From an uncultured Gammaproteobacteria bacterium (GTDB lineage: Bacteria; Patescibacteriota; Patescibacteriia; S139-126), in assembly GCA_964493305.1 (NCBI GenBank), contig CAZBLW010000002.1, positions 258,521-322,520 on the forward strand: a stretch of 64,000 bases of DNA, given 5' to 3'. Numbering within the stretch: the first letter of the stretch is position 1; each line of letters starts with the position of its first letter. A model generated the notes under the pieces. The model saw only the letters and a list, made by a program, of their open reading frames with translations, searched no databases and was not told where the DNA came from. Below, in pieces: positions 14,815 through 61,167 of this stretch. A program made the translations under genes and the position numbers.

Positions 14815-14897
14815 GGATAAAAGTTTAAAAATTCAGATTTATTTAAAAATTACAAAATTAAAAATTAAAAAATTCATTAGTTATTAGTAATTAAAAA

Positions 14898-15004
14898 ATG
14901 AAGTTTTCTTTTCCCCAACTAAATATATTAAAGTCCTTAAAACGAGTTCCAGGTAACAAGGAATATAATTGTCATTCCGAACTTGTTTCGGAATCTAAAA
15001 AATA
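14898..15004 (+). pseudogene. orphan duplicated 5' end (about 21 codons, out of frame) of the giant-protein gene family, interrupted by a half MITE
   Basis: atgaagttttcttttccccaactaaatatattaaagtccttaaaacga encodes MKFSFPQLNILKSLKR, homologous to the N-termini at 15005 (MKLKFSKLNIVKTLKR) and 20946 (MHFSFPQLNILNALKR). It is followed by ttgtcattccgaacttgtttcggaatc and a stop, then the real start at 15005. 15005 minus 14898 is not a multiple of 3. Confidence 0.5.
14970..15000. repeat. MITE half-element (first hairpin only)
   Basis: ttgtcattccgaacttgtttcggaatctaaaaaat. Confidence 0.6.
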
Positions 15005-20806: not shown

Positions 20807-20862
20807 AAAATGTTAATTATAAATTGTAAATTTTAAATTATAAATGAATTATAAAATTACAA

Positions 20863-20882
20863 CCTGCCTGCCGGCAGGCAGG
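20863..20882. repeat. perfect 20-bp palindrome cctgcctgccggcaggcagg in the intergenic region between two giant genes
   Basis: Read directly from the sequence. Related to the second hairpin of the MITE (gattcctgc...gcaggaatc). Confidence 0.6.
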
Positions 20883-20945
20883 AATTAAAAATTATAAAAT
20901 TAGTAATTCATTAGTTATTAGTAATTAGTCATTAGTAATTTATCC

Positions 20946-23900
20946 ATGCATTTTTCTTTTCCCCAACTAAATATATTAAATGCCTTAAAACGAACCAAAG
21001 TTAACAAAGGTACTTGGTTGGCTATTTTTGCAGTAGTGGTTTTGGTTTTGGCTAGTTCTTTTTACTTCTTTCGTAAAGATTCCCCAGAAGCAGAAGCTTC
21101 TTGGTGGGATGAAGGTTGGTATTATCGTAAAGCCTTAGTAGTTGACTATACCAAAGTAGATAGTGAATTAACCAACTTTCCCATAGCTGTCCAGTTTAAC
21201 ACCACCAACAATATCTATAATAATACCAATAGTGATGGCTCTGATCTTAGGTTTACTGATAACAATGGTAATCTCTTAAACTATGAGATAGAAAAGTGGA
21301 ATGAATCAGGCACTTCTACTGTTTGGGTAAAACTACCCACTGTTTATGCTACTGCTTCTACTACTTTTTATATCTACTATGGCAATCCTACTGCCACTGA
21401 TGCTCAAACACCTACTGAAGTCTGGGATGATAACTTTGTGGGGGTGTGGCATATGGCGCAAGATCCATCAATTGCTGGTGCCAGTATTTTAGATTCTACC
21501 AGCAAGCAAAGCAACGGCTCACCCCTGGGGTCGATGACTACTGATGATTTGATAGATGGCCAGTTGGGTCAAGCTTTGGATTTTGATGGTTCAAATGACA
21601 CAATCAATTTTGGCAATGGAACTGATTTCAATTTGACTAGTGAATATACTTTTTCAGCGTGGATAAATTATAAACGAACCCTACTTCAAACTTTATTTGC
21701 CAAAAGTAGTTCTTATCGTTGCCGCGTACAAGCTACTAGTGATACTTTGAGTATTTACAATTTTACCGATACGACCGATACCAATGTCAATGCCATATTG
21801 ACCGTACCAAAAAACGAATGGTCATATGTGTCTTGTGTTTATGATAGTACCAATGGTGGTAAAGCATATTTAAACACCAGCACCAACACCGGACCTACTC
21901 CAGGCAGTGGTAATCTTGATCAAACAAGCGAAAATGTTTATTTAGCTTCTTTGAACAATAGTAGTAGGTTTATGCAAGCCTTTATAGATGAGGCTAGACT
22001 TTCCAAAGTCAGAAGAAGTGATGCCTGGATAAAAGCCGATTATTATAGCGGTTTAGGTACACTTTATACCCAATTGTCTGAAGAACAAGGTCCAGGGCCG
22101 GTGGCTTATTGGAGTTTTGATGAAGGGTATGGGACTACTGCCAATGACTATTCAACTGGCGGTAATAACGGCACTATCACCGGCGCTACTTGGAAAGATA
22201 GTTCAGAGTGCGTAAAAGGTAAATGTTTATTTTTTAATGACAACGGCTATGTTCAGATGAATACTACCACGACATTGGCAAAAAACAATTTTACGATTTC
22301 AGCATGGTTTAAAACTGATAGCACTGCTGATGATAAGATTATTTCTTTTGGTACATCATACCATCCTTTGCAGATTTTAAATGGCAATTTTCGTGTTTGT
22401 ATGAATGGTTGCTCAGTTGGCACTCGTATATTTAATGATAATATATGGCATCACGCACTTATTGTCGGAGATCAATCTTCTATCCGAGTATATGTTGATG
22501 GACAATTAGAAATAACTCAAGGGGTAACAAGTGGTGATATGGCTGGTATTTTACGTATTGGTGCTGTCGGTGCAGATGGTGGTGGTACGAGTCCTACTTA
22601 TTATTTTAAAGGTTATATTGATGAAGTAAAAGTTTATAACTACGCTCGCAGTGCTGATCAAATCAGACAAGATTACAATAAAGGTTTTAACATCGCTTTA
22701 GGACAAGCCAATCAATACAATAGTTTGTCAGATGGTTTGGTTGGGTGGTGGCCCATGGATGAACAAACTTGGAATGGAACCTCTGGTGAAGTACTTGATA
22801 TGAGTGGCAATAACACCACCGGTACAGCTACCAATGCCAATACCACATCCACCGCTAGATTTGGTAGAGCTGGAAGTTTTGATGGTGATAGTGATTATGT
22901 TGAGTTGAATAATAATTCTAAAATTGCCAATTTAAACTCATCTAGCTTCACTATGGCTGGCTGGATTAGAACCACTGATATTACAAAAGAATGGCAAGGT
23001 ATTTTTGGTACTGACAACAGTCTTAGTTTTTTCGCAATTTATTTGCAAAGTGATGTCTATGCCTATACCTATATGGATGGACAGGTTGGAAATATTCGTA
23101 CACTTCACTCTGGCGCCAATTCTATAAAAAATAATACTTGGTATCATATTGCCGCCACCAGAGATTATCAAACTGGAGTTACTAATTTGTATTTAGACGG
23201 TAAATTGGTAGATACTTTTACAGCTTTAGGTAATGCTGGTGATCCACAAAATGGACTATATTTGTCTGTGGATGGTGCCAATAGCTTCAAAGGACAACTT
23301 GATGATATGCGTATATATAACCGCGCACTATCAGCTGATGAAGTCAGGCGTTTGTCTGAGTGGGCACCAGGGCCAGTATTATATATGCCTTTAGATGAAG
23401 CATCTGGAAGTAGTGTGTATGATAAAAGTGGAAATAATTTAAGTACAACGACAATCGGTTCACCAACTTGGTTAGACGGAAAATATGGTTCAGCTTTGCA
23501 TTTCAATGGTTCTACCCAAAAAATTGATTTAGGTAATAGTTCAAATTTACAATTAACAAATGGAACAGTTGAAGCCTGGATTAAAACCAGTGATGCCGGA
23601 ACGACGTATCGAGGTATTGTGGCCAAACAAAATGCCTATGGTATGTTTTTAAATGATAATGTTTTTGGAATATATGATTGGGGTGGAAGTGGGTGGCACA
23701 CGTCTGGCGTTAGTTTAAATGATAATCAGTGGCACCATGTCGCTTTTTCTTTTCAGAGTGGAATTGCCAGCGGTACTATTTTATATATCGATGGTATTCC
23801 TAAGTTGATAACAACAATGACAGTATCCAATCAAACTGCTTCATTGCAAATTGGTGAAGCAAATTCTAATCAGTATTTTGCAGGAGAAATTGATGATATA

Positions 23901-25990: not shown

Positions 25991-26401
25991 ATGACAGAAT
26001 TACTATATGAAGAGTTGAGTTATAAAATTAGAGGATGTTGTTTTACTATTTATAATACTCTTGGCTTTGGTCATAAAGAAGATATATATCAAAAAGCCTT
26101 AGAGATTGAATTAGCTAAACAAAAAGTTAGATATGAAGCACAAAAAAGTTTAGCTATATATTATGATGATAAAAAAGTTGGCAACTATAGACCAGATTTA
26201 ATTATTGATGATAAAATAATTATTGAAATTAAAGCAGTTGAGTTTATTCCAAAAAAGTTTGAACAACAGTTAATATATTATTTAAGGGGAATTAATTTCA
26301 AACTTGGATTTTTAGTAAATTTTGGAAGTTCAAAACTATATATTAAACGTCTTATTTGGTCGACAAATTATCAGCGTAAATCTGCCATTAATCCGTTGTA
26401 A
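25991..26401 (+). CDS. GxxExxY family protein (PD-(D/E)xK-like small protein)
   Basis: 136 aa. N-terminal LSYKIRGCCFTIYNTLGFGHKEDIYQKALEIEL carries the G-H-K-E-D-I-Y (GxxExxY) signature and the ALxxEL helix typical of TIGR04256-like proteins. Confidence 0.75.
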   Translation: MTELLYEELSYKIRGCCFTIYNTLGFGHKEDIYQKALEIELAKQKVRYEAQKSLAIYYDDKKVGNYRPDLIIDDKIIIEIKAVEFIPKKFEQQLIYYLRGINFKLGFLVNFGSSKLYIKRLIWSTNYQRKSAINPL

Positions 26402-27520: not shown

Positions 27521-27590
27521 ATAAGATTTAAGATGTAAGATTTAAGAATTAAGAATTCATAAATCATACTTCATAAATCAGAAATCATTT
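27521..27590. repeat. 'gatttaagatttaagaat ... attcataaatcatacttcata' intergenic repeat. Second copy at 59048-59118, partial copy at 14381-14420.
   Basis: The 21-mer attcataaatcatacttcata is present at 27545 and 59086, both preceded by gatttaag iterations. Confidence 0.6.
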
Positions 27591-28653: not shown

Positions 28654-28787
28654 AGAATTACGAATTAGGTATTACGAATTAAGAATAAATGAAAAATCCT
28701 TATAAATTAGTCATTTTTATCAGTAATTAGTTATTAGTAATTAGTCATTAATTAATATATTCCCCATTAATAAAATTAATCAAACAT

Positions 28788-37026: not shown

Positions 37027-37093
37027 ATTATCAATCATAAATTATAAATCAATTTTTAAAATTTAAAATTTAAAATTTATAATTAATACAACT

Positions 37094-38634: not shown

Positions 38635-38797
38635 TTGTAACCTCCTGATAATTAATAAGAATAAATTATTTAAGAACAATTTATTTAATATAAGCTAAAT
38701 TATCTATTTTGTCAAGGTTATTTTGATTAAAGATTTAAGTTGTAAGTTATAAGTCGTAATTCGTAATTATTAATTCCTAATTCCTAATTCTATTTAC

Positions 38798-40927: not shown

Positions 40928-41046
40928 ATTAGACAATTATAAATTGTAAATTATAAATTGTAAATTATTAATTTATTTTAATTCTTAATTTATGATACTT
41001 TATTCCAATTTAGCCTTTCTTTTTTGTCAAATTTATGGTATAATAT

Positions 41047-43706: not shown

Positions 43707-43846
43707 GGGGATAGATTTGAGTAAGAAATAGGAAAGAATAATTACCAATTATTAATAACTAATTACTAAGCAATGATTAAATTTAAAAATTATCTAATTA
43801 GTAATTCATTAGTTATTAGTAATTAGAAATTAGTAATTAAAATATT

Positions 43847-43913
43847 TGTCATTCCGTGCTTGACACGGAATCTAAAAAATAAAAATGGATTCCTGCTTTC
43901 GCAGGAATGACAA
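43847..43913. repeat. MITE-like element, full copy
   Basis: tgtcattccgtgcttgacacggaatctaaaaaataaaaatggattcctgctttcgcaggaatgacaa. Confidence 0.7.
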
Positions 43914-44006
43914 TGATAAAAATTTAAAAATTTAGATTTATTTACAAATTTAAAAAATTTAAAATTGATTAGTTATTAGTAATTAGTCATTAGTAATTAA
44001 AACAGT

Positions 44007-44040
44007 TGTCATTCCTGATTTAGTCAGGAATCCAGAAACA
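44007..44040. repeat. MITE half-element
   Basis: tgtcattcctgatttagtcaggaatccagaaaca. Confidence 0.6.
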
Positions 44041-44051
44041 AAAATAAAAAT

Positions 44052-46598: not shown

Positions 46599-46730
46599 AA
46601 TTATAAATTATCAATTTTAAATTATAAATAAATTATAAATTTAAAATTAAAAAATTCATTAAAAATTTACAATTTATAATTTAAAATTACTTTCCCTGGT
46701 ATTCTGAAAATAGTATTTAAAAAAATGTAT

Positions 46731-50675: not shown

Positions 50676-50719
50676 TCTTTGAGTTTAGTTAGATAGTAAA
50701 AAGTACTTCATAACGCTTT

Positions 50720-50757
50720 CCACCCCCTGTTCCTATGGCAGGGGGTGGATTGTTTTT
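50720..50757 (+). terminator. rho-independent terminator (first of two in tandem)
   Basis: ccaccccctgttcctatggcagggggtgg followed by a T-run. Confidence 0.75.
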
Positions 50758-51139: not shown

Positions 51140-51943
51140 ATGAACAACCAACCAGACAATATTCAAACTAATCAGCCGGTGAGTGAAAATAAAAACCAAA
51201 ACCGTATTTGGTATTTGCTGATAATTATCGTAGTTTTGGCAATAGTTTCTTGGTTAGTTTATAACAACACCAAAGATAAAACCCCAACAGTCAGTGAAGA
51301 GCCAACCAATGGACAAGTATTGGTGGGTGGGCAAGATTTGTCACAATATTTCAAAAACGAAGACAAAAAACTATCTCCCGATGTATTACCACCAGAGGAA
51401 ATAAAGGCCAGATTTGAAGCTGATTTGGCAGCAGCGCGTCAGTATATAATTGATGAAGAGGCTAAAGGAGATGGCAATGAGTATCAGGGGTATATGGGAG
51501 TAGCCAATTCTTTACGTGCTTTGGGTGATTATCCTGCAGCTGAGCAAGCTTATTTTGATATGATAGCTAAATATCCGGATGATGAACTTATTTATCACAA
51601 CTTGGGTGTTTTGTATGAAGATATGCATCAGTATTTGGAGGCAGCTAAGGCCTATACAACTTCAATTGCCAAAAAACCAGAAGAGCTTATTGCTTATCTG
51701 AAACTAGCAGATCTTTATGTTAAACATTCAAGTCAGTCTGCCAAAGCCAAAGAAGTTTATCTCAAAGCCTTGGAAGCAACCAACAATCATCCGGAAATGT
51801 TGAAAGCTTATGCTAGTTATTTAGAAAATGATGAAAAAAATTTGCCTGAAGCTTTACTGTATTGGCAAGAAGTGTTGAAAGTAAATCCCGATAATCAAGC
51901 GGTGAAGGAGAGAGTGGAAGAGTTGGAAAAAAAGTTGAATTAA
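51140..51943 (+). CDS. TPR-repeat protein with N-terminal TM
   Basis: TM WYLLIIIVVLAIVSWLVY. TPR-like helical repeats (ANSLRALGDYPAAEQAYFDMIAKYPDDELIYHNLGVLYEDMHQYLEAAKAY...). Confidence 0.6.
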   Translation: MNNQPDNIQTNQPVSENKNQNRIWYLLIIIVVLAIVSWLVYNNTKDKTPTVSEEPTNGQVLVGGQDLSQYFKNEDKKLSPDVLPPEEIKARFEADLAAARQYIIDEEAKGDGNEYQGYMGVANSLRALGDYPAAEQAYFDMIAKYPDDELIYHNLGVLYEDMHQYLEAAKAYTTSIAKKPEELIAYLKLADLYVKHSSQSAKAKEVYLKALEATNNHPEMLKAYASYLENDEKNLPEALLYWQEVLKVNPDNQAVKERVEELEKKLN

Positions 51944-52415
51944 TTTTAAATTATAAATTATAAATTTTAAATCAATTTTTTAATTTTTAAATCAAAATAT
52001 ATGAGAGGAGAGAGTCATATTTTTGACCTTGAAGAAAGGACAGCTAAATTTGGCGAAGATGTATTGAAATTTTTAAAAGAAATAAAAGTAACAGTTAAAA
52101 ATCAGTCAATTATTAATCAACTTATAAAGTCAGCTACTTCCATTGGCGCCAATTATATGGAGGCAACAGGTGCAGAGTCAAAAAAAGACTTTAAACACAA
52201 AATTGGTATATGCAAAAAAGAAACCAGAGAAACAAAGCATTGGCTAAGGATGATTGCAATTTTCCAACCTGATAGCAAACCCCAAATTAAAACACTCTGG
52301 CAGGAAGCACATGAACTTATTTTAATATTTTCTAAGATAATCAGAACTTGTAAAAATTAAATAATTTATAATTAAGTTTTCATTTATAATTTAAAATTTA
52401 TAATTTATAATTTAA
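51937..52415 (+). repeat. ~480-bp direct repeat, copy 1 (carries the four-helix-bundle gene plus ATAAATT-tract flanks)
   Basis: Essentially identical to 54607-55085 including the ORF and both AT-rich flanks. The two copies bracket the 52422-54614 gene. Confidence 0.85.
52001..52360 (+). CDS. four-helix-bundle protein (TIGR02436 / 23S-rRNA-intervening-sequence protein family), copy 1
   Basis: 119 aa. SIGANYMEATGAESKKDFKHKIGICKKETRETKHWLRM matches the S-I-x-AN-I-A-EG...E..YWL signature of the family. Confidence 0.8.
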   Translation: MRGESHIFDLEERTAKFGEDVLKFLKEIKVTVKNQSIINQLIKSATSIGANYMEATGAESKKDFKHKIGICKKETRETKHWLRMIAIFQPDSKPQIKTLWQEAHELILIFSKIIRTCKN

Positions 52416-52421
52416 AACCCA

Positions 52422-54614
52422 ATGTCCCAAAATACCTTAAAACGAATTATTCAATCAGGACTAGCTGCAGTGCTGTTTGTACCAATATTAATTAGCGGAA
52501 AATTTTTGTTTCCTTATATCCATCTCAAAAATGCCTCATTTCGAGTGATTGTGACAGTACTTCTGGTGCTTGCGATTTGGTATTTGTGGCGACAAGGCGA
52601 GATTTATGGACGGAAAAATTATGTACTGTATGCATTTACGGGTATTTTTTTGGTAGAAATTATTGCTGGTATTTTTGGGCTAAATCCTTATAACAGTTTT
52701 TGGAGTAATTATGAGCGGATGGATGGGATTGTGCTGTTTTTCCATCTACTGCTTTATTTGTGGTTGTTGATACAATTTTTTCAAACCAAAGATGAGTGGT
52801 TATGGTTATTGCGTTCATCACTGGTAGTAGCTCTGATTTTATCGATTTATGGACTGGCCCAACGAGCAGGGGTAAGTAATGCTTGGATTTTGCCCAATGA
52901 CGCTCCTCGGATTGCTTCTACTATAGGTAACCCAGCTTATTTTGGTGGGTATTTACTGTTTCATGTATTTTTTTCGGGTATTTTACTTTATTTAGACCGT
53001 GTCAGATGGCGACAGGTGATTTATGCTTTGGGGGTAATATTTTTTACCTATATGATGTATGCCACTGGAACCCGCGGTCCTTTTTTGGGTTTTGTGGTGG
53101 GACTGGCTGTCATGGGGGCAATGTATTTTAAACATGCTGGTCAAAAACTAAAAATTGGCATAGCTATTGGTCTACTACTCATACCTTTGTCTGGAATATT
53201 TTTGTATACACAAAGAAACTCTGAGTGGTTGAAAAATTATTCTACTTTTCATCGTATTGCCAATATCAACTTGAAAGATTTGACTACCATTGATCGTATC
53301 AATACCTATGTGACTTCCTGGCATGCTTATACTGACCGGCCATTGTTTGGCTATGGACCAGAAAATTATCGTTATGGTTTCAATAAATATTACAATCCGG
53401 ATTTACATGAACAATGGTTTGACCGAGCGCACAATGTAATTTTTGATTATCTAAATTTAGGCGGACCCCTGGCATTGCTATTTTATCTGTCACTACTTGG
53501 AGCAGCAGTGTATTATCTTTGGCAGGCAAGAGGAGATGATTATTTTTTAAGTGTTTTGCTAATCAGTTTAGTATCAGCTTATTTTTTCCAAAATTTATTT
53601 GTCTTTGATTCTTTAAACACTTATTTGCCGCTTTTAGTAACTCTAGCTATGTCAGCTTGGCTTTATTTGCGCAATCAAAAGCATAGTTGGCAATTGTCTA
53701 ATAGTGCCCGAGCGTGGCAAATGCCACTAGTTGCAGCTAGTATAATTTTTGTTCTACTTAGTAATTATTTTATTGTTATCAAACCAGCGCAAGCCAATCT
53801 TATATCAATTGAAGCTTTTCGCTACACCCAAGCTGATCCCGCTAAATCTTTGGAACTTTTCGAGCAAGCAATCGATATGAATACTTATGGCAGTAGGGAA
53901 ATCATGTTACAACTTAATAATTTTGCTTCTGCAATAGTGCGTGATCAAAATCAAACTCAGGAATTACGGCAAAATGTTTTTAATACCAATCGGCGTTATG
54001 CCTTGGCGCATCTAGAAAAAGATCCTGGTGATATCCAATTTCGCATGTTGCTGGCAAATACTTATTTGAATTACTCGTCTATAGATAGTAGTTATTTACA
54101 AAAAACCGTTGATTTGTTGGAACCACATATTGCTGACTCACCGGATAGGTTGGAGTTGTATTTTACTTTGGTGCAGGCCTATCTGGGGATGAACAATTTA
54201 GACAAAGCCGGACTTTATGCCAAGACTGCTTTTTCCAAAACCCAAAGTAAGCCCTCAGTGTATCTCAATTTGATGAATTACTATGCGGCAGCCAAAGATG
54301 GTGATAATTTTATGAAAACCGCTGATGAGTATGAAACCAAATTTGATTTAGGACTGGCTGATTGGCAGCAGTTGGCTGAGTTTTATTACAACGTTGGATT
54401 GTATGATCGGGCTGAGCGTATTTTAAGAGATAAAATAATTGCGCAAGATCCTAACAATTTACAAAATTATGCAGGTCTAGTGGCGGTTCTGCGTGGACAA
54501 GGTAGATTGGATGAGGCGATTGCCTTATTGGAGCAGTTAAAACAAGCCTTTCCAGCAGCTGCCAAAGATATAGAAAGTTATCAGAAACAGCTGGAAACAG
54601 AGATGGGTAATTAA
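52422..54614 (+). CDS. O-antigen-ligase-like (Wzy_C) polytopic membrane protein with a C-terminal TPR domain
   Basis: About 12 TM helices, with ATGTRGPFLGFVVGLAVMG in the Wzy_C-like periplasmic loop region. C-terminal ~280 aa are TPR-like (LANTYLNY..., AEFYYNVGLYDRAERIL, LVAVLRGQGRLDEAIALL). Confidence 0.65.
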   Translation: MSQNTLKRIIQSGLAAVLFVPILISGKFLFPYIHLKNASFRVIVTVLLVLAIWYLWRQGEIYGRKNYVLYAFTGIFLVEIIAGIFGLNPYNSFWSNYERMDGIVLFFHLLLYLWLLIQFFQTKDEWLWLLRSSLVVALILSIYGLAQRAGVSNAWILPNDAPRIASTIGNPAYFGGYLLFHVFFSGILLYLDRVRWRQVIYALGVIFFTYMMYATGTRGPFLGFVVGLAVMGAMYFKHAGQKLKIGIAIGLLLIPLSGIFLYTQRNSEWLKNYSTFHRIANINLKDLTTIDRINTYVTSWHAYTDRPLFGYGPENYRYGFNKYYNPDLHEQWFDRAHNVIFDYLNLGGPLALLFYLSLLGAAVYYLWQARGDDYFLSVLLISLVSAYFFQNLFVFDSLNTYLPLLVTLAMSAWLYLRNQKHSWQLSNSARAWQMPLVAASIIFVLLSNYFIVIKPAQANLISIEAFRYTQADPAKSLELFEQAIDMNTYGSREIMLQLNNFASAIVRDQNQTQELRQNVFNTNRRYALAHLEKDPGDIQFRMLLANTYLNYSSIDSSYLQKTVDLLEPHIADSPDRLELYFTLVQAYLGMNNLDKAGLYAKTAFSKTQSKPSVYLNLMNYYAAAKDGDNFMKTADEYETKFDLGLADWQQLAEFYYNVGLYDRAERILRDKIIAQDPNNLQNYAGLVAVLRGQGRLDEAIALLEQLKQAFPAAAKDIESYQKQLETEMGN

Positions 54615-55085
54615 TTTTAAATTATAAATTATAAATTTTAAATCAATTTTTTAATTTTTAAATCAAAATATATGAGAGGAGAGAGTCATATTTTTGACCT
54701 TGAAGAAAGGACAGCTAAATTTGGCGAAGATGTATTGAAATTTTTAAAAGAAATAAAAGTAACAGTTAAAAATCAGTCAATTATTAATCAACTTATAAAG
54801 TCAGCTACTTCCATTGGCGCCAATTATATGGAGGCAACAGGTGCAGAGTCAAAAAAAGACTTTAAACACAAAATTGGTATATGCAAAAAAGAAACCAGAG
54901 AAACAAAGCATTGGCTAAGGATGATTGCAATTTTCCAACCTGATAGCAAACCCCAAATTAAAACACTCTGGCAGGAAGCACATGAACTTATTTTAATATT
55001 TTCTAAGATAATCAGAACTTGTAAAAATTAAATAATTTATAATTAAGTTTTCATTTATAATTTACAATTTATAATTTATAATTAA
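54607..55085 (+). repeat. ~480-bp direct repeat, copy 2
   Basis: Identical to 51937-52415. Confidence 0.85.
54672..55031 (+). CDS. four-helix-bundle protein, copy 2 (identical to 52001-52360)
   Basis: 100% identical ORF. Confidence 0.8.
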   Translation: MRGESHIFDLEERTAKFGEDVLKFLKEIKVTVKNQSIINQLIKSATSIGANYMEATGAESKKDFKHKIGICKKETRETKHWLRMIAIFQPDSKPQIKTLWQEAHELILIFSKIIRTCKN

Positions 55086-55258: not shown

Positions 55259-55347
55259 TTGTCATTCCGCACTTGATGCGGAATCTAAAAACAAAAACAA
55301 AAATATTATTTATTTTTTTGGATTTCTGACTAAATCAGGAATGACAA
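55259..55347. repeat. MITE-like element, full copy (second half near-identical to the 2353-2433 copy)
   Basis: tgtcattccgcacttgatgcggaatctaaaaacaaaaacaaaaatattatttatttttttggatttctgactaaatcaggaatgacaa. Confidence 0.7.
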
Positions 55348-55401
55348 AATTCTTAAATCTTAATTCGTAATTCCTAATACTTAATACTTAATTCTAAAAA
55401 A

Positions 55402-57807
55402 ATGAGGAGAGAGAAACAAAACTTATTTTTGGTTTGTTTGGGTTATTTATTAGCCCGGATAAAGCTGTGTGTCCCAATTGTTGTTGGGATTTTTTTATTT
55501 TTGGCGGTAGCACCACCTGCTGAGGCTCAGTTTTTACCTCTAGTGACCATCACCGGGCAAGTAACAGATATAAATAGTGACAAACCACTATATAAAGCCA
55601 AGGTTATGGTGGTGCAACCTTGGGAAACTGAAGATTGTTTGACAGGTAATTATACAATTTTTGGTTGTTGGCAGGATAAACATGTAATTTCCGGCCTGGC
55701 TTATACAGATTTACAAGGCAATTATAAAGTTTATACTCATGATGCTTGGGTTGATATTTGGTTGATTGTTGAAATTTATGGTTATGATACTTATCAGGAA
55801 ACCAAAAATTATAACAATTATAACCATCTACTTGATATTGCTATGACTAAAAATCCGGAAATTTTAGATCCAGTGTTAATTGTGCCGGGGATTATGGCCA
55901 GTTGGAATCGGAACCTTTTAGATAAAAATTTAGAATACGCTGATGAGTGGGAGCTTGATCCGCATTTTCATACTTATGACGGTTTAATTGCTGATTTGGA
56001 AAATTATGGTGGCTATGTACAGGGTGAAACCTTGTTTACTTTTCCTTATGATTGGCGAAAATCAAATATTTTTACGGCCGAACTATTGCACGGTGAGATT
56101 CAAAAAATAAAAAATCAGACAGGCTCTCCTAGGGTTGATGTGGTAGCTCACTCGATGGGAGGATTAATAGCCAGACAGTATATCAGTACTAATTTATACC
56201 AATATGATATTGATCAGCTTATTTTCATCGCCACGCCCCAGCGTGGCGCGCCCAAAGCGTATTTGGCCTGGGAAGGAGGGTATTTGGGTACCACGGTAGT
56301 GTCAGACTTTATCAAAGAACTGTTGGTGGCAAAAATTGCCAAAACCGACGGGTACTGTGATTCTATTTTAGAAAGAAACAGGTGTGTTTATAACTATGTC
56401 CGAGGTTATCCCGTGTCAGCTTTGCACCAACTACTGCCGGACTATGACTATTTGCAATCAGGTATCACTGGAGAAGTATTTTCCTATCCGTCTAAACATC
56501 CTTATAGTAGTTTATTGTCAACGCTCAATGCCTGGTACAGTTTAGCTAAATTTTACAACTCCGGAGTAGAAGTAAGTACGATTTATAATTCTACTCCCAA
56601 TAGTACGGTCGGTACGATCCAAGTACTACCCAGAACTGATGAGCAAAAACCTTTTTGGTACTATGGTTATCCGGATGGGTTTTCTAGTTTGTTTCGGGAT
56701 AATGGCATGGTTTATACAGATGGTGATGAAACCGTTCCTTATTCCAGTGCGACTTTTATAAATAGTGAAAGATTTATTGCTAAATTAGATACAGATCATA
56801 CAAGAATAGTAAATAAATCTTCTAAGAATATATTAGAAATACTAAATAATCAATTTATTGATATCCAAGTAGTTGATCAGCCGGATGAATATATAATCGT
56901 GCAAGTGCATTCACCAGTGGATATTTTGGTCACTACACCCAGTGGCAAAAAAATCGGATATAATGCTCAGACCAATACTGATACCAATGAAATTAGCGGA
57001 GCGTATTATTCAGGATCAAGGGCTAGTAATGAATATATTCTGTTACCTGGTAAGGAAGCGGGGAATTATCAACTAGATTTAGTGGGTACTGGTGAAGGGG
57101 AATATCAGGTAGATATTAGTTTGGTTTCAGACAACGGTTTCGTAAGTCAGATTGTAGCTAGCACAACTCATATTGGTGAACAAACTAGAGTAGGAGCAAA
57201 ATTTGATTCAGGAGGTGTAGAAATAGTTGATTTGACTGATACTACTCCACCAGAGATAGTTATTAACTCCCCACAAAGTTTTGGCGAGTATGAAGCTCAT
57301 TTAGTACTGCCAATTGAGGTAAATGTAAGCGATGAAAATAGTGGGGTAGGTGAGGTAAAAATTTTAATTGATGGACAAGAGTATTTATCAGCAACTATTA
57401 ATCTATGGGATTGGTCATTTGAGAGACATGATTTGCAAGTAGTAGCGACTGATCTTGCAGGCAATCAGGCCGTCAAAGAAATACCTTTTTGGGTTTATGC
57501 CAATTTCAACAGTTTACGTGGCAGTATTGATAGATTGTGGCAAAGCGGTGATATAATAAATGAAGAAGTCAAGAATAAATTGTTATTGGAAGTTGATTGG
57601 TTGTATCGTTCTAAAGAGTTGGAAAAGTTGTTGGAAGAAAAAAATGAACCCCAAGGTGATAGTGTGTCAAATTGGCGCACCAGTATGTCAGATTATTTGA
57701 CTGATAAGTTAGTCAATCAAATGTATAATAAGAGTTATATTTCCCAGTTTGCTAAAGAAATTTTACTTAAACAATTTTATTTTGTAACTCGTAATATAAA
57801 ATTATGA
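55402..57807 (+). CDS. secreted alpha/beta-hydrolase (lipase / LCAT-PGAP1-like esterase) with an N-terminal CarboxypepD_reg-like beta-sandwich and C-terminal beta-rich domains
   Basis: Signal anchor. ITGQVTDINSDKPLYKAKVMVVQ (carboxypeptidase regulatory-like). Nucleophile elbow VDVVAHSMGGLIARQY (GHSMGG). 801 aa. Confidence 0.65.
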   Translation: MRREKQNLFLVCLGYLLARIKLCVPIVVGIFLFLAVAPPAEAQFLPLVTITGQVTDINSDKPLYKAKVMVVQPWETEDCLTGNYTIFGCWQDKHVISGLAYTDLQGNYKVYTHDAWVDIWLIVEIYGYDTYQETKNYNNYNHLLDIAMTKNPEILDPVLIVPGIMASWNRNLLDKNLEYADEWELDPHFHTYDGLIADLENYGGYVQGETLFTFPYDWRKSNIFTAELLHGEIQKIKNQTGSPRVDVVAHSMGGLIARQYISTNLYQYDIDQLIFIATPQRGAPKAYLAWEGGYLGTTVVSDFIKELLVAKIAKTDGYCDSILERNRCVYNYVRGYPVSALHQLLPDYDYLQSGITGEVFSYPSKHPYSSLLSTLNAWYSLAKFYNSGVEVSTIYNSTPNSTVGTIQVLPRTDEQKPFWYYGYPDGFSSLFRDNGMVYTDGDETVPYSSATFINSERFIAKLDTDHTRIVNKSSKNILEILNNQFIDIQVVDQPDEYIIVQVHSPVDILVTTPSGKKIGYNAQTNTDTNEISGAYYSGSRASNEYILLPGKEAGNYQLDLVGTGEGEYQVDISLVSDNGFVSQIVASTTHIGEQTRVGAKFDSGGVEIVDLTDTTPPEIVINSPQSFGEYEAHLVLPIEVNVSDENSGVGEVKILIDGQEYLSATINLWDWSFERHDLQVVATDLAGNQAVKEIPFWVYANFNSLRGSIDRLWQSGDIINEEVKNKLLLEVDWLYRSKELEKLLEEKNEPQGDSVSNWRTSMSDYLTDKLVNQMYNKSYISQFAKEILLKQFYFVTRNIKL

Positions 57808-58166
57808 AAAAAATATTTAAATTTATAGTAGTTTATTTAGTGATTATTGGCTTGGCAATAATTACTACTACTATAGGCAAAAATATTTACGGTTTATTTT
57901 TTCCGAGGCAATTAATGGCGGGTTGGGGCACATTTTTTACCCCAGGAATTATAGAAGGATTTGTTTTCATGTATTTATTTTGGCTAAGCACAGTATTTGT
58001 GCCGGTGTTTAAACAAAAGTGGTGGCAGTATGCTTTAGCACCGGGATTAATTGTTTGGTTACCAGTTGCACTGTTTTGGCCGGTAGGTTTGGTGGGGGTG
58101 ATATTTTGTGGAGTGGGGGTGGGATTGGGATATCTGGCGCTTTGGTTAAAGAGAAAAATAAGTTAA
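57804..58166 (+). CDS. small polytopic membrane protein, hypothetical. Overlaps the lipase gene stop (ATGA).
   Basis: 120 aa with 3-4 TM helices, translationally coupled. Confidence 0.5.
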   Translation: MKKIFKFIVVYLVIIGLAIITTTIGKNIYGLFFPRQLMAGWGTFFTPGIIEGFVFMYLFWLSTVFVPVFKQKWWQYALAPGLIVWLPVALFWPVGLVGVIFCGVGVGLGYLALWLKRKIS

Positions 58167-58198
58167 AAGTTTGTAAAATAATAAAGTTTATAAAGTAT

Positions 58199-58282
58199 TG
58201 TCATCCCTGACTTAATCAGGGATCCAGAAAAAAAATAAGATGGACTCTTGATATTTCGCTGACGCAAAATTCAGGAATGACA
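58199..58282. repeat. MITE-like element, degenerate second half
   Basis: tgtcatccctgacttaatcagggatccagaaaaaaaataagatggactcttgatatttcgctgacgcaaaattcaggaatgaca. Confidence 0.6.
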
Positions 58283-58301
58283 CTTAGAATAAAATAAAAA
58301 A

Positions 58302-58589
58302 ATGAAAGAGTATTTTGTATATATTATGGCCAGTAATAAAAATGGCACATTGTATATAGGTGTAACTTCAGATTTGAAGAAAAGGATATATGAACATAAA
58401 AATGATTTAGTACCAGGTTTTACCAATAGATATAAAGTACACAATTTGGTTTATTTTGAAGTAATCAATGACATCAGAGAAGCATTACTTAGAGAAAAAA
58501 GATTAAAAAAATGGAAAAGAGAATGGAAGATTAAGTTAATTGAAAAAAATAACCCAAGTTGGAAAGATTTATATGAAGGTTTATTTTAG
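58302..58589 (+). CDS. GIY-YIG nuclease-superfamily small protein (UPF0213/YhbQ-like)
   Basis: YFVYIMASNKNGTLYIGVTSDLKKRIYEHKN (G-T-L-Y-I-G ... R...H). 95 aa. Confidence 0.8.
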   Translation: MKEYFVYIMASNKNGTLYIGVTSDLKKRIYEHKNDLVPGFTNRYKVHNLVYFEVINDIREALLREKRLKKWKREWKIKLIEKNNPSWKDLYEGLF

Positions 58590-58596
58590 ATTTTTT

Positions 58597-58745
58597 GGAT
58601 TCCTGCCTACGCAGGAATGACAAGGAAAGAACTTATTGTCATTCCGTGCTTGACACGGAATCTAAAAAAATAAAAATGGATTCCTGCCTACGCAGGAATG
58701 ACATGGGAGAATGGATTTCTGCTGAAGTTTATCCCGCACTTGATG
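58597..58745. repeat. cluster of MITE pieces: a second-half fragment (58597-58623), a full copy (58637-58703) and a truncated fragment (58704-58745)
   Basis: ggattcctgcctacgcaggaatgaca ... ttgtcattccgtgcttgacacggaatctaaaaaaataaaaatggattcctgcctacgcaggaatgaca ... ggatttctgctgaagtttatcccgcacttgatg. Confidence 0.65.
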
Positions 58746-58860
58746 TCAAAATGAAAATTTCATTTAATTAGGATTTGTTTATAAAATTAGAAAATTTATT
58801 TACAACTTGTGATTTGGAAATTCTAATTTTTTTGAAAAATTAGACCTGTGGATAACTTTA

Positions 58861-58890
58861 TTGCCTTACGTTAAAATTAATTGCTATAAT
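58861..58890 (+). promoter_or_regulatory. sigma-70-like promoter (TTGCCT, 18 nt spacer, TATAAT) driving a short transcript
   Basis: ttgccttacgttaaaattaattgctataat. Confidence 0.45.
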
Positions 58891-58979: not shown

Positions 58980-59149
58980 GATACAAAAAAAACAGACAGA
59001 CGTCTGATTTAGTTAAAAGTTAGTAAAGTTTGTAAAGTTAGAAAGTATAGATGATTTAAGATTTAAGATTTATGATTTAAGAATATTCATAAATCATACT
59101 TCATATGTCATAAATCTGGTAAATTATTTATAATTTACAATTTATAATT

Positions 59150-60292
59150 TTACCGAAGGTATATTTCTTTGGTTTTACTAATCATATTCTCGATATTGAT
59201 TTGTTTTCTCACTCGAGAAAGTTGTTGTTCATCAAGTGGGGTTTGATTGATAAGTTCAGAAATGGTTTGGGTAAGTGCCGCGGTGTCATTTGGTTCTACG
59301 AGGCGATAATGAGTTTGCGGATAAAATTCCAGCATTTCAAAAATACCTCCCACCCGGGTGGCTACAATCGGTAACCCTTGAGCCATAGCCTCCAGTAGAG
59401 TATAAGGTAAACCTTCTTTGACTGAAGGTAAAACAAAGATATCAAAAGCCGAAAGATAGTTTTTGGCATTTTGTATACTACCCAGTAAAAAAACTTTACT
59501 TTCCAGTTTTTTTTGCTTGATCATAACTTGTAAATTTTTCTTTTCCGGGCCTTCACCAATGATGGTAAAGATAGTATCAGAATTTGTTTTAATAATTGTC
59601 TCTGCAGCGGTAATCAGGGCTGGGAGATTTTTGGTGGGATAAAGGTTGGCTATGGAGCCAATGAAGAATTTGGCAGTTGCTAGTTGTAAATTTCCCGATA
59701 TAGATAATAGTTTTTCTCTGGCTAGTTGTTTGGTAAGATTGGAAGTATGGTTGATATCAATACCGTTGTGAATTGTCACAATCTTTGCCATGGGAAATTT
59801 ATTGAGCCGGGCGGCGGAGCGATCGTATTCTGATACACAGATTACTTTGTTTTTATGAAGCGCAGAAAATTTCTCTGCCCAGAGATATAGTTTTTTCAAA
59901 CCTTCAGCAATTGGTTCCAAAAATACCCAACCGTGGGCAGTGTAGATAACTTTTTTATTTAAGCCCCAAGCGGCTAGCGATCCTAAAATACTTATCTTAC
60001 TGCTATTTAAATGGATAATATCAGGATTTAGGTTTTTGATTAGCTTTCTAATCTCAAATATTGCCAGCAAGTCAAAATGAGGTAAAATTGAACGTTTAAC
60101 ATATTTCAGTTGATACCAAGGAATTGAGTTGTCTTTCAATTTCAAAGGTAGCCAATCAGTATTGATTCCACCCGAGGCAACTGAGATATCAAGCTCATCT
60201 TTTAAGTGAGTAGCTAAATCAAGTACATAAGCTTGGGCGCCACCTGCTTCGGGTAAAGTAATCAAGTATAAGATTTTATTTTTTGTTGACAC
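59150..60292 (-). CDS. glycosyltransferase family 4 (GT-B, retaining)
   Basis: EGLPYTLLEAMAQGLPIVATRVGG (E-x7-E motif region) and N-terminal GGAQAYVLDLA. 380 aa. Confidence 0.8.
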   Translation of the reverse strand: MSTKNKILYLITLPEAGGAQAYVLDLATHLKDELDISVASGGINTDWLPLKLKDNSIPWYQLKYVKRSILPHFDLLAIFEIRKLIKNLNPDIIHLNSSKISILGSLAAWGLNKKVIYTAHGWVFLEPIAEGLKKLYLWAEKFSALHKNKVICVSEYDRSAARLNKFPMAKIVTIHNGIDINHTSNLTKQLAREKLLSISGNLQLATAKFFIGSIANLYPTKNLPALITAAETIIKTNSDTIFTIIGEGPEKKNLQVMIKQKKLESKVFLLGSIQNAKNYLSAFDIFVLPSVKEGLPYTLLEAMAQGLPIVATRVGGIFEMLEFYPQTHYRLVEPNDTAALTQTISELINQTPLDEQQLSRVRKQINIENMISKTKEIYLR

Positions 60293-60396
60293 AAAAATTA
60301 ATTATAAATTATTAATTGTAAATTATAAATGAATTTTCAATTATTCAATTCAAAAATTTTATAATTGATTTAAAATTGATAATTTAAAATTTAAAA
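60293..60396. repeat. AT-only tandem tract of ATAAATT / TTATAAATT units (representative of about 13 such intergenic tracts)
   Basis: aattaattataaattattaattgtaaattataaatgaatttt.... Similar tracts at 2298-2340, 20815-20860, 37024-37092, 40935-40975, 46598-46690, 51944-51990, 52360-52420, 54610-54660, 55030-55080, 59130-59160, 61168-61282, 62965-63000. Confidence 0.7.
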
Positions 60397-61167
60397 TTAT
60401 TTTAGTAATTTCTTAACTAGATATCTAACTACGCGACGTAAGTAAGCACCCAAAAATCCAGAATAATCTTTTCTGTATTTCACAATCAAACTGATATTCA
60501 TCTTCATCATAGCAAGGATTTTTTGCTTGGTCACGTTGCTAGAGTGCTTTCGGTATTTGGTCATATATTCTGGCAGATTGCCAATTTTCCACATCACTGC
60601 CATCCGTAACCACAGATCATAATCTTCCAAAAAAGGTAAACTCTCATCATAACCTTTCAAATGATCAATTCCAGCCGTACGCATCAAAACACTTGAGTGG
60701 GCCAGAGGATTTTTGTAGAGAATTGATTGTTTAATTTTTGCTGAATCGGTTTGGTTTTGGTAGCGGTTTATTTCCTGGCTTTGTTCATCAATTACAATCA
60801 CGCCGGTGCCAACCACCGCACAATCAGGGTGAGTGTCTAGATATTCAATTTGTTTAGCAAGTTTTTCTTGGTCAGACCATAAGTCATCACTATCAAGTAC
60901 TGCTAAAAATTCTCCTTTGGCAGCTTTTAGGCCGATGTTGCGCGCGGCACTAATACCAGGATCGGTTTCATTTTTGATATAAATAAAACGTTTATCATCT
61001 TTGGCTAATTCGGTGATGATTTTTTCATTAGCATCATAATCACCATTGTCCACGACAATAAGTTCCCAATCAGTCAGGGTTTGATTTTTTACACTTTGAA
61101 TCATCTCAGGGAGGAATTTTTCCCGCCCTTGGTGGGTAAGGGTGATAATGGAAACCTTGGGTAACAT
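60397..61167 (-). CDS. glycosyltransferase family 2
   Basis: VSIITLTHQGREKFLPEMIQSVKNQT..ELIVVDNGDYD..LAVLDSDD (GT-A DxD). 256 aa. Confidence 0.8.
   Translation of the reverse strand: MLPKVSIITLTHQGREKFLPEMIQSVKNQTLTDWELIVVDNGDYDANEKIITELAKDDKRFIYIKNETDPGISAARNIGLKAAKGEFLAVLDSDDLWSDQEKLAKQIEYLDTHPDCAVVGTGVIVIDEQSQEINRYQNQTDSAKIKQSILYKNPLAHSSVLMRTAGIDHLKGYDESLPFLEDYDLWLRMAVMWKIGNLPEYMTKYRKHSSNVTKQKILAMMKMNISLIVKYRKDYSGFLGAYLRRVVRYLVKKLLK

Follow-up and report, generated by a model that had tools for sequence, protein, structure and literature searches.

The locus discussed here raises a straightforward question: why does a gene for an O-antigen-ligase-like protein lie between two long and almost identical direct repeats? 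Does the arrangement act as a switch, by which the gene can be deleted or amplified? Or are the repeats copies of an independent element, so that the bracket is only a by-product of its spread? The evidence from the window (i.e., the whole 64-kb stretch of DNA that was analyzed) and from related loci makes the second answer the probable one.

The repeat copies occupy 51938-52412 and 54609-55083 (offset 2671), each 475 nt long, and a base-by-base comparison gives 474 identities. The stretch 51938-52393 equals 54609-55064 exactly over 456 nt; the sole mismatch, A at 52394 and C at 55065, falls in the 3' flank and is followed by 18 further identical bases, and on the right the ungapped similarity stops at 52412/55083. 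An earlier note on this DNA had described two identical direct repeats of ~480 bp, both flanks included, at 51937-52415 and 54607-55085: the repeats and their location stand, their complete identity does not, and the ends were drawn 1-3 nt too wide. A repeat search of the 64-kb window returned no second repeat as long as this pair, which excludes chance as its origin. Nor is the pair an artefact of assembly, because raw-read assemblies made independently break exactly at the repeat edges. In the runs SRR9016293 and SRR9016294, the Logan contigs L086 and L087 are 100% identical to the window and end at 51967, 30 nt inside copy 1, while contig L176 spans 52384-54638 and stops 30 nt inside copy 2. 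Stopping ~30 nt into a repeat is how a k=31 graph should behave where the repeat is real. Three of the four repeat junctions are confirmed by these independent assemblies of two runs, and L001, from a different sample, has the cassette after the Wzy-like gene. The parts of the locus are as follows.

51140..51943, + strand: TPR protein gene 5' of copy 1, which opens with the final 6 nt of this gene (AAT TAA, last codon plus stop)
51938..52412, + strand: cassette copy 1 (type A), in the spacer that separates the TPR and Wzy-like genes; the ancestral slot and probable donor
51940..51975, + strand: left arm of copy 1, heptads TTTTAAA TTATAAA TTATAAA TTTTAAA TC; begins at the TPR-gene stop codon
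52001..52360 (copy 1) and 54672-55031 (copy 2), + strand: four-helix-bundle ORF, 119 aa (PF05635 / TIGR02436)
52379..52412, + strand: right arm of copy 1, inverted heptads of the TTTATAA type; ends 9 nt 5' of the Wzy-like start codon
52422..54614, + strand: polytopic Wzy_C protein (O-antigen-ligase-like), 730 aa, with TPRs at the C terminus, between the two cassette copies
54609..55083, + strand: cassette copy 2 (type A), 3' of the Wzy-like gene in the following spacer; apparently a recent copy
54611-54646 and 55050-55083, + strand: arms of copy 2, which flank its ORF (54672-55031), placed by base-by-base comparison with copy 1

Both genes at issue are what the earlier note had taken them to be. 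The bracketed gene encodes a polytopic membrane protein whose residues 204-356 score 62 bits for Wzy_C (PF04932), above the cut-off of 31.7, and the source databases list its homologues as "O-antigen ligase family protein". The 119-aa ORF carried by each repeat exceeds both family cut-offs, with 56.4 bits against 33.8 for PF05635 (23S_rRNA_IVP) and 79 bits against 24 for TIGR02436, and it matches PDB 2RLD in sequence (E 2.9e-12). An AlphaFold monomer model (pLDDT 93) predicts helices at residues 10-26, 35-56, 61-88, and 90-117; the best structural matches found with Foldseek are two non-DGR members, 2RLD (TM 0.77-0.84) and 2GSC (TM ~0.8), and the DGR Avd structures 8UB7 and 4DWL reach TM 0.65-0.73. 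The family has a conserved motif, GxxRxxxSxxxNxxE (PMC3936711), of which the SxxxNxxE part is found here as S47-IGA-N51-YM-E54, without variation in alignment A3; where the motif has R, this protein has K (most relatives keep R), and the subfamily does not conserve the G. Synonymous and nonsynonymous codon changes relative to orthologues number 28:10, 22:14, and 24:19, and on these counts the protein is under purifying selection in these lineages. Since the orthologous copies in relatives are merely 88-91% identical in nucleotides, the near-identity of the two copies indicates a very recent copy or conversion, as had been supposed.

What surrounds the ORF had been described as AT tracts. Such flanks are indeed present, but this description missed their nature: the ORF is enclosed by heptad arrays in inverted orientation, a feature general in the gene family. 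At this locus, the inverted arms measure 34-36 nt and are 88-89% complementary (inverted repeats I12-I14), the left arm of copy 1 being a period-7 array. The MFE and centroid folds both close copy 1 by pairing 51944-51972 with 52388-52417, a predicted stem of ~29 bp around the ORF; the whole-cassette fold beats shuffled sequences only modestly (z -2.09), and that of the L003 orthologue does not beat them (z -0.85). The left arm hardly varies among relatives with genomes ~80-85% identical, and the arms stay nearly invariant in relatives whose four-helix-bundle ORF has diverged by 9-12% of its nucleotides. Rfam detected only tRNAs and no rRNA in the window, and the cassette sits between protein-coding genes.

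How did two copies come to flank one gene? Eight related lineages were examined (L001, L003/L002, L005, L088, L169, L173, L174, and L175). The slot 5' of the Wzy-like gene holds a four-helix-bundle gene in every readable relative (L003, L005, L088, L173, and L175) and a remnant of one in L001; this slot has been occupied since ancient times. In five relatives (L002, L003, L173, L169, and L174), the slot 3' of the Wzy-like gene contains a heptad hairpin and no ORF, so that copy 2 is best seen as a recent copy of copy 1. In these hairpin-only relatives, the slot is bounded by the same anchor, AAAAGTTATCC. Their hairpins use other heptad types (TTACTAA, AAATCCT), and those of L003/L002, L173, and L169 differ in heptads with pairing conserved, at ~-22 kcal/mol each; an empty precursor with the same arms in the corresponding slot of the present lineage is hypothetical. 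Copy 2 also bears a mark of its source, for its first six bases, AAT TAA, are the final codon and stop of the TPR gene upstream of the donor, and the TPR genes of L003, L005, and L088 likewise end in AAT TAA. Because copy 2 brings these six bases with it, the Wzy-like protein ends in ...MGN* here and in L001, versus ...Q* in L003, L169, and L173.

Related to this history are ORF-less hairpins elsewhere in the window.

46599..46688, + strand: ORF-less hairpin with related arms, 3' of a DUF5667 gene; 3 mismatches in each arm
60293..60398, - strand: ORF-less type A hairpin, in the spacer between GT2 and GT4 glycosyltransferase genes

The arms of the second differ from the cassette arms by 1-2 mismatches in 34 nt, and its spacer is identical to the ORF-removed cassette at 94 of 105 positions; the same slot contains a type-A gene in L175 (71% aa) and an unrelated family member of 131/132 aa in L003/L173. 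The first matches the ORF-removed cassette at 83 of 96 positions, with a weak fold (z -1.06). Overall, ORF-less hairpins reach 94/105, 81/85, and 98/109 identities with the ORF-removed cassette (~90-95%), and filled and empty forms have both the arms and the inner, non-array sequence in common. The relatives contain four family members (types A-D), each with its own matching arms. Among 156 other loci, an empty hairpin stands at most 3 kb from a filled cassette in eight.

Is this architecture peculiar to one locus? Duplex z-scores were calculated for flanks of 100 nt around 80 homologues, drawn from species-representative genomes, with 75 metagenome loci as a replicate. The homologues gave a median of -2.73, with 70% below -2 and 44% below -3, as opposed to -0.10, 12%, and 6% for the flanks of 269 other genes of the same loci; the metagenome loci gave a median of -2.21, with 40% below -3. 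Flanks paired with their true partners averaged -32.8 kcal/mol versus -24.8 kcal/mol for mismatched partners (Wilcoxon p=1e-17, n=153, mostly CPR), and ~30-50% of the homologous loci have no clear stem in these 100-nt flanks. The period of 7 recurs in the flanks of homologues, where the heptads differ from locus to locus and in every case the 3' arm complements the 5' arm; period-7 arrays also occur in 12-14% of control flanks, i.e., those of genes not adjoining a four-helix-bundle gene. Pairing of the sense strand is preferred in 86 versus 67 loci (p=0.013), a small difference that base composition could explain. As for the genomic setting, Rfam found only tRNAs over 20 homologous loci, and a screen for rRNA motifs was positive in 2 of 160, leaving 158 without rRNA signatures. 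The four-helix-bundle gene is co-oriented with both neighbors in 49 of 64 cases, with median gaps of 53 and 75 nt. The 141 neighbor proteins fall into 107 clusters, with pairs such as parA/parB, ahcY/metK, and pilC/pilin (names given by reading the sequences, not by family search). In the window, no terminator-like site separates the TPR gene, the first cassette, the bracketed gene, and copy 2. The inverted-arm plus ORF architecture is thus typical of the gene subfamily across many, mainly CPR, genomes, and it resides in ordinary operons, between genes unrelated to one another, not in rRNA.

Taken together, we consider it probable that the repeats are rRNA-IVS-like stem-plus-ORF cassettes that occupy operon spacers and spread by recombination between hairpin arms. 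Copy 2 would then derive from copy 1 by recombination or gene conversion into a resident hairpin, with the ~35-nt heptad arms supplying the homology or microhomology for copying. The cassette may be co-transcribed with its neighbors, and, by analogy with 23S rRNA IVSs, its long AU stem could be a processing site for RNase III (a double-strand RNase), whose cleavage would free the small-ORF mRNA and separate the flanking cistrons. The conserved Avd-like protein might bind nucleic acid, possibly its own arms. If the repeats are such cassettes, their spread, and not a dedicated switch, accounts for the bracket around the Wzy-like gene.

Could the element instead be a DNA transposon or a MITE-like derivative, the arrays serving as terminal inverted repeats for a transposase acting in trans, or for the four-helix-bundle protein, and copy 2 being a product of transposition? 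The terminal inverted arrays, the dispersal of the arm sequence (eight matches against none expected across 64 kb), the short, MITE-like ORF-less derivatives, and the polymorphic occupancy between strains all agree with this view. It is nevertheless unlikely. No target-site duplication is definable at either copy apart from TTAA, ubiquitous in the AT-rich sequence here, and no recombinase, transposase, integrase, or reverse transcriptase was found in the 64-kb window (the latter in ORFs of at least 100 aa). Moreover, the left end of the copy takes in the donor gene's last codon and stop, and a resident hairpin appears to have been replaced by the copy, not joined by an insertion beside it; both points speak for recombination or conversion over transposition, whether cut-and-paste or copy-and-paste.

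The heptad arrays may also have a life of their own. All 18 in the window are intergenic, many are without an ORF, and some of the same sequence stand as single arms after the stop codons at 2304 and 20815, so that they may serve the host apart from the ORF, for example as promoters, terminators, or arrays that bind a protein. The right arm of copy 1 contains sigma-70-like -10 hexamers (TATAAT). One could therefore picture host regulatory hairpins (terminators, processing sites, or protein-binding arrays) with an ORF hitchhiking in their loops, duplicated by ordinary segmental gene conversion; the arrays in control flanks and the empties that share a slot in several relatives, with differing heptads and conserved pairing, would suit this picture. 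We give it little credence, as complementary flanks are far more frequent at these genes than at others in the same loci (the 70% versus 12% given above), the empties match particular cassette types down to the inner, non-array sequence, and members of types A-D each keep their own arms.

This leads back to the switch. The earlier note had proposed that the direct repeats make the Wzy-like gene excisable or amplifiable, and RecA-mediated deletion or tandem amplification would indeed provide an on/off or copy-number control of a surface glycan. A perfect direct repeat of 456 bp, with its partner 2.2 kb away, is a competent substrate for homologous recombination, and the neighborhood is a variable surface/glycan region of glycosyltransferases and LamG surface proteins, in which the window and L003 differ by a 3.6-kb insertion or deletion at 55292-58877. 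The proposal is thus physically possible, but it is unsupported, and we regard it as quite improbable. The comparison of other strains that the note had suggested shows the Wzy-like gene kept in 8/8 related lineages, with no TPR-cassette-lipase junction, the deletion allele, in any of them; what varies is occupancy by the small cassette. Deletion would, in addition, be irreversible, and proteins of the Wzy_C plus TPR type are widely conserved among Patescibacteria, with 343 homologues at E<1e-30, which argues against dispensability. Finally, in L009 a gene lies between two divergent, nonrecombinogenic cassettes (52% nucleotide identity), so bracketing follows from cassette density. Scarcely credible are an Avd accessory gene of a DGR, despite the similar fold, as no template/variable repeat pair lies nearby and non-DGR proteins match best, and a mis-joined repeat of the kind that MAG assemblies can produce, given the independent assemblies and the order seen in L001.

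How does the cassette compare with known systems? Its protein has a four-helix-bundle fold homologous to that of DGR Avd (TM ~0.7). Avd forms a basic pentamer and binds both reverse transcriptase and RNA, which points to a role in nucleic-acid binding; unlike a DGR, the cassette is accompanied by no reverse transcriptase, no template repeat, and no variable target gene. With systems that delete or amplify surface-antigen genes through direct repeats, the locus shares a glycan-related gene between long, near-perfect repeats, but here one arrangement is observed, and the repeats belong to an independent element known from many unrelated contexts. Like MITEs and REP/BIME palindromes, the cassette forms short, dispersed, intergenic hairpin repeats, with ORF-less forms related to a longer ORF-bearing form; it differs in being without target-site duplication, transposase, or RAYT-type gene, in having arms that are heptad arrays of different sequence between families, and in an ORF whose product, a helical bundle of 13 kDa, is no enzyme of known transposition chemistry.

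The rRNA-gene insertions of CPR bacteria also include ORF-containing and ORF-less versions at the same sites, scattered over the phylogeny, with 23S_rRNA_IVP ORFs among their passengers (PMC11270868). They share with the cassette filled and empty alleles at one site; however, most are group I introns or homing-endonuclease elements in rRNA (PMC11270868), whereas the cassette has no endonuclease or intron fold and sits in operon spacers.

Closest in design are the 23S rRNA IVSs with an S23p ORF of Coxiella burnetii, Leptospira, and Xanthomonas, which belong to the same family, PF05635/TIGR02436 (PMC4990558). The site differs, a spacer between protein genes for the cassette and helix 9, 25, or 45 of 23S rRNA for the IVSs, and so does the stem, almost pure A-U in the cassette; the Coxiella ORF, moreover, is decaying and probably untranslated (PMC4990558), in contrast to the apparent purifying selection on the cassette protein. 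In both, nevertheless, terminal inverted repeats form a long stem around the ORF, and heptamers lie beside it, of the TTATAAA type in the cassette and GACAGAT in Coxiella, where they precede the ORF in tandem and RNase III cuts the stem at the first heptamer (PMC4990558). Both types of element, the IVS (PMC4990558) and the cassette, exist in ORF-containing and ORF-less versions, and both have a sporadic, strain-variable distribution that suggests mobility.

The two repeats around the Wzy-like gene are real, although their description needs a small correction. The earlier note had them as identical direct repeats of about 480 bp; in a base-by-base comparison (offset 2671), 51938-52393 and 54609-55064 agree exactly over 456 nt, a sole mismatch follows (A at 52394, C at 55065), then 18 identities, and similarity stops at 52412 and 55083. 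The repeat unit is thus 475 nt with 474 identities, and no other repeat of comparable size occurs elsewhere in the 64-kb window. An assembly artefact is ruled out by the break points of independent Logan contigs: in the assemblies of SRR9016293 and SRR9016294, window-identical contigs end at 51967, 30 nt inside copy 1, and another contig covers 52384-54638 and ends 30 nt inside copy 2, the behaviour of a de Bruijn graph with k=31 at a true repeat. The upstream copy is 88-91% identical in nucleotides to those of the related lineages L088, L005 and L003, where the surrounding genes reach about 80-85%. Because copy 1 shows this ortholog-level divergence from its relatives, and yet matches copy 2 at 474 of 475 positions, the copying must be recent, as the earlier note had supposed, with ongoing gene conversion as its alternative. 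The parts of the locus are as follows.

51140-51943: TPR gene, upstream of copy 1
51940-51975: left arm of copy 1, heptads TTTTAAA TTATAAA TTATAAA TTTTAAA
52001-52360: four-helix-bundle ORF of copy 1, 119 codons
52379-52412: right arm of copy 1, the left-arm array inverted
52422-54614: Wzy-like gene, bracketed by the two copies
54672-55031: four-helix-bundle ORF of copy 2, 119 codons

The gene contents claimed for this region were confirmed: the bracketed gene encodes a Wzy_C polytopic protein with TPRs at its C-terminus, and each repeat bears a four-helix-bundle gene. The 119-aa product of the latter is a bona fide PF05635/TIGR02436 member, with 56.4 bits against PF05635 (cut-off 33.8), 79 bits against TIGR02436 (cut-off 24) and an E value of 2.9e-12 against PDB 2RLD. 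Its AlphaFold model has four helices (pLDDT 93) and most closely resembles 2RLD and 2GSC (TM about 0.8), with DGR Avd next (TM about 0.7). Synonymous changes outnumber non-synonymous ones in the ORF, the protein keeps >55% identity across very different lineages, and its closest homologue among GTDB representatives is 69% identical in amino acids. Avd is an RNA- and RT-binding protein; conservation and homology to Avd together lead us to expect that the four-helix-bundle protein would bind nucleic acid, possibly its own arms. A DGR was rejected, as neither an RT (in window ORFs of 100 aa or more) nor a nearby TR/VR pair was found. PADLOC assigned neither the small protein nor the Wzy-like and TPR proteins to a defence system, and no match came from scanning metagenome_contigs and viral_contigs with an exact-pattern query for the cassette ORF, a degenerate pattern of 34 nt. 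No further insertion sites of the type-A cassette of the window were found beyond the window and the known relatives.

With regard to the anatomy of the cassette, the arms of copy 1 measure 34-36 nt and are 88-89% complementary; both the MFE and the centroid RNA folds pair 51944-51972 with 52388-52417, which leaves the ORF in the loop and closes the whole cassette. The spacers are nearly filled by it: the ORF begins 57 nt after the TPR gene stops, and the Wzy-like gene begins 61 nt after the ORF stops. A strong terminator-like hairpin stands at 50719-50749, 5' of the TPR gene, and none was found between the TPR gene, the cassette, the Wzy-like gene and the second cassette; co-transcription of all of these is therefore likely. 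Sigma-70-like promoter matches (TTTTCA-16-TATAAT, 10/12) lie in the right arms (52377-52411 and 55048-55082), just 5' of the next gene, and a downstream gene could also gain a promoter from an inserted cassette. The arm sequence itself occurs 8 times in the window (<=3 mismatches) vs 0 expected.

The same enclosure is found around homologous genes. Homologues at 56-70% amino acid identity were fetched with their flanks from 80 loci of GTDB species representatives and 80 metagenome loci, labelled mostly as Patescibacteria/CPR and in some cases as Gammaproteobacteria, Desulfobacteria, Ignavibacteria or Zixibacteria; 158 of these 160 loci are free of rRNA signatures. When the 100 nt upstream of each gene were paired with the 100 nt downstream, the duplex z in the genome loci had a median of -2.73 (70% below -2, 44% below -3), as against -0.10 (12% and 6%) for 269 other genes in the same loci. 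In the metagenome loci (n=75) the median was -2.21, with 40% below -3, as against -0.74 and 15% for mismatched partner flanks. The mean duplex energy (n=153) was -32.8 kcal/mol vs -24.8 for mismatched partners (Wilcoxon p=1e-17), and the best 35-nt self-identity at period 7 was 0.64/0.68 in the four-helix-bundle flanks vs 0.47/0.48 in the control. In about a third to a half of the homologous loci the stem is not convincing within 100 nt. The heptad varies by locus (TTTTGAA, TGTCAAA, TTACTAA, a GGCCAAA type in a 51% GC genome, and others), and despite these differences the 3' arm in each case complements the 5' arm, which is covariation of entire arms. Duplexes are more stable in the sense than in the antisense strand (86 vs 67 loci, p=0.013), a small effect compatible with selection at the RNA level and too weak to decide on it. 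In 49 of 64 cases both neighbours point in the same direction as the gene, with median gaps of 53 and 75 nt, and the neighbours are diverse: 141 proteins fall into 107 clusters and, judged by reading the sequences, include pairs such as parA/parB, ahcY/metK and pilC/pilin. At 8 of 156 loci there are ORF-less hairpins, no more than 3 kb away, whose arms match.

Close relatives offer a view of individual slots. Eight related lineages were recovered, 69-92% identical in nucleotides over the Wzy-like region, and their occupants are listed here by cassette sequence type.

Occupants of three slots in the window and in related lineages (L numbers)
Upstream slot (TPR / Wzy), window: type A
Upstream slot, L003, L005, L088: type A, 84-92% aa
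Upstream slot, L173, L175: type B, 57-60% aa
Upstream slot, L001: frameshifted type-B remnant with type-B arm
Downstream slot (after Wzy), window: type A (copy 2)
Downstream slot, L001: type A, 99% identical
Downstream slot, L002/L003, L173: ORF-less heptad hairpin, TTACTAA/TTAGTAA arms
Downstream slot, L169: ORF-less heptad hairpin, AAATCCT arms
Downstream slot, L174: ORF-less heptad hairpin, partial
GT2 / GT4 spacer (60293-60398 in the window), window: ORF-less hairpin
GT2 / GT4 spacer, L175: type A, 71% aa
GT2 / GT4 spacer, L003, L173: unrelated type D (131/132 aa) with its own arms

All downstream-slot hairpins share the end anchor AAAAGTTATCC, and those that are complete (L003/L002, L173, L169) have folding energies of about -22 kcal/mol. 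For the upstream slot of L001, a decayed type-A cassette (69% identity) was considered and rejected: the sequence is a frameshifted type-B C-terminus plus right arm. Slot occupancy does not agree with the phylogeny of the adjoining Wzy-like gene. Three different four-helix-bundle genes lie at 388-7681 in L173 (GCA_964540695.1, CAZINS010000014.1) and two at 4116-11884 in L175, within 8-12 kb; such genes in the relatives belong to four sequence types (A-D) with mutual identities of 22-77%, and every one has heptad arms that match it. L174 carries, at 5428-6054, a Gp49 (HigB-like)/HTH pair, probably a toxin-antitoxin module, in the stretch that separates the GT4 gene from the lipase-like region, where the window has nothing comparable.

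Another point is how filled hairpins, which carry the ORF, relate to empty ones. Local alignments were used for these comparisons, a MAFFT global alignment being misleading there. The GT2/GT4 spacer of the window, whose arms differ from the cassette arms by 1-2 mismatches, is identical at 94 of 105 positions to the type-A cassette minus 54672-55028; the post-Wzy hairpin of L173 matches that lineage's own type-B cassette minus the ORF at 81/85, and that of L003 matches the ORF-removed type-B cassette of L173 at 98/109. By this likeness the ORF-less hairpins are the cassette minus its ORF. The likeness extends to the inner parts outside the arrays, so that a module of ~365 nt has been either inserted into, or deleted from, a common hairpin framework.

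The direction of copying can be read from the ends of the repeat. Its first bases, AAT TAA, form the final codon and the stop with which the TPR gene ends, and the same six bases end that gene in L003, L005 and L088; the Wzy-like protein ends in ...MGN* in the window and L001, and in ...Q* (CAATAA) in L003, L169 and L173. The start of the repeat and the altered C-terminus therefore identify the upstream cassette as the probable donor, the end of the recipient spacer having been overwritten. At the mismatch site, copy 1 has A, as have the upstream orthologues of L088 and L005, and C is found in copy 2, in the downstream copy of L001 and in the ORF-less arms 60300-60333 and 2304-2337. This would fit a conversion tract ending within the right arm of a resident hairpin of the same family, one site being weak evidence. 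The only candidate target-site duplication is TTAA, uninformative in AT-rich sequence, and searches of the 64-kb window turned up neither a transposase nor an integrase nor a reverse transcriptase; copy 2 is therefore more likely to stem from recombination or gene conversion, with the heptad arms as guides, than from transposition.

Compared with L001, the window is a mosaic: most 100-nt bins of 52610-53307 (5' part of the Wzy-like gene) are 67-87% identical, with 99% in bin 53010-53109, and most bins of 53908-55083 (3' part and downstream cassette) are 95-100% identical, with 88% in bin 54408-54507. This suggests recent inter-strain recombination with a breakpoint within the Wzy-like gene.

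Other repeats and genes of the window deserve mention. Period-7 AT-rich arrays (AATTATA, TTAGTAA, TTTAAGA and TAATTCC types) occupy 18 sites, intergenic only and never within genes, typically right after stop codons or shortly before start codons, and look like a genome-wide spacer architecture. Single arrays also exist without a partner arm, and these may have host functions. That all spacers are hairpins was rejected, since several intergenic heptad arrays fold no better than shuffles (z -1.06 to +1.12). A second dispersed family consists of GC-containing hairpin repeats of the TTGTCATTCCG...CGGAATGACAA type, which frequently form inverted pairs; a 3.6-kb segment that is absent from L003 has copies at and within its ends, at 55259-55347 and 58198-58724.

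2299-2337, 14685-14718, 20815-20847, 20908-20940, 27522-27559, 28722-28750, 37049-37089, 38763-38791, 40935-40968, 43806-43839, 43966-43999, 55351-55395, 59050-59084, 59123-59150 and the four cassette arms: period-7 arrays
14725-14764, 14969-15008, 43846-43885, 44006-44045, 55259-55298, 58198-58237, 58636-58675 (partners, e.g., 55306-55347): GC-containing hairpin repeats
55292-58877: the 3.6-kb segment, with a lipase-like 801-aa gene and a 120-aa membrane protein
3920-7903, + strand: 1327-aa ORF (notable at 4001-6000 and 6528-7700)
7907-25949, + strand: three very large proteins (2156, 1933 and 1667 aa) with repeated Laminin_G_3 and DUF2341 modules
25991-26401, + strand: PF13366 PDDEXK_3 gene (PD-(D/E)XK nuclease superfamily), 136 aa, gaps of 41 and 5 nt

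The 1327-aa ORF has a GC content of 0.52 vs about 0.37 elsewhere, a GC skew of +0.34, four tandem repeats of about 324-333 nt and no Pfam match. The three large proteins, whose DNA has many internal repeats, probably represent the kind of surface protein that is typical of CPR bacteria. The PF13366 gene separates the gene of the 1667-aa LamG surface protein from the one that follows; like the four-helix-bundle genes, this family of small genes is dispersed over operons and rRNA insertions, and no simple enclosing stem was seen around the copy at 25991-26401.

What, then, is the repeat pair? The earlier note saw in it a potential switch for the Wzy-like gene. Perfect repeats of 456 bp can indeed delete or duplicate this gene by recombination, but nothing in the available data shows either event taking place: the gene is kept in all eight relatives, with no deletion allele seen, and the Wzy_C+TPR protein is broadly conserved in Patescibacteria. 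Moreover, the repeats are explained by an element found in many unrelated contexts, and genes bracketed by two cassettes also exist with divergent copies (L009, another homologous locus). The Wzy-like gene itself is modestly affected, in that the repeats carry a latent risk of its being deleted or duplicated.

What is observed is the anatomy, the family-wide enclosure of these ORFs by inverted heptad arrays, alleles with and without the ORF, and a recent copy. The stem probably forms in a polycistronic transcript and would be a substrate for a double-strand RNase, as in 23S IVSs; in the IVS of Coxiella, tandem heptamers precede an ORF of the same family, and the first heptamer is where RNase III cuts (PMC4990558). 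A broader and quite tentative proposal, which may well prove wrong, goes further. Four-helix-bundle genes and their inverted heptad arms would form an undescribed class of small mobile cassette that colonises operon-spacer hairpins in CPR and other bacteria, and the classical intervening sequences (IVSs) of 23S rRNA would be a special case, cassettes that came to lie in rRNA. The ORF module of ~365 nt would move between same-arm hairpins by arm-guided recombination, the protein would act on the arms (DNA or RNA) and promote copying or processing, ORF-less hairpins would be empty or decayed sites, and the window pair a fresh copying event.

Should RNA be processed at the stems, operon mRNAs of CPR bacteria would undergo a so far unrecognised kind of processing; to our knowledge, these bacteria cannot yet be studied genetically. 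The result also accounts for the annotation of "four helix bundle protein" genes amid unrelated operons, including between cas genes (PMC3936711). Family members are likewise found in CPR rRNA insertions (PMC11270868), and the literature searched, with incomplete coverage, described neither cassettes that heptad arrays enclose in operon spacers nor alleles with and without the ORF. The function of the ORF in bacterial rRNA IVSs, and the mobility of IVSs, have been open questions since the early 1990s (reviewed in PMC4990558). The window locus provides a concrete handle on both, with heptad stems in ordinary operons, a slot that is filled in some close relatives and empty in others, and a second copy almost free of mutations. 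The element does not lie in rRNA, the location that defines an rRNA IVS, but it looks like an ORF-bearing one and, by analogy, would work like one.
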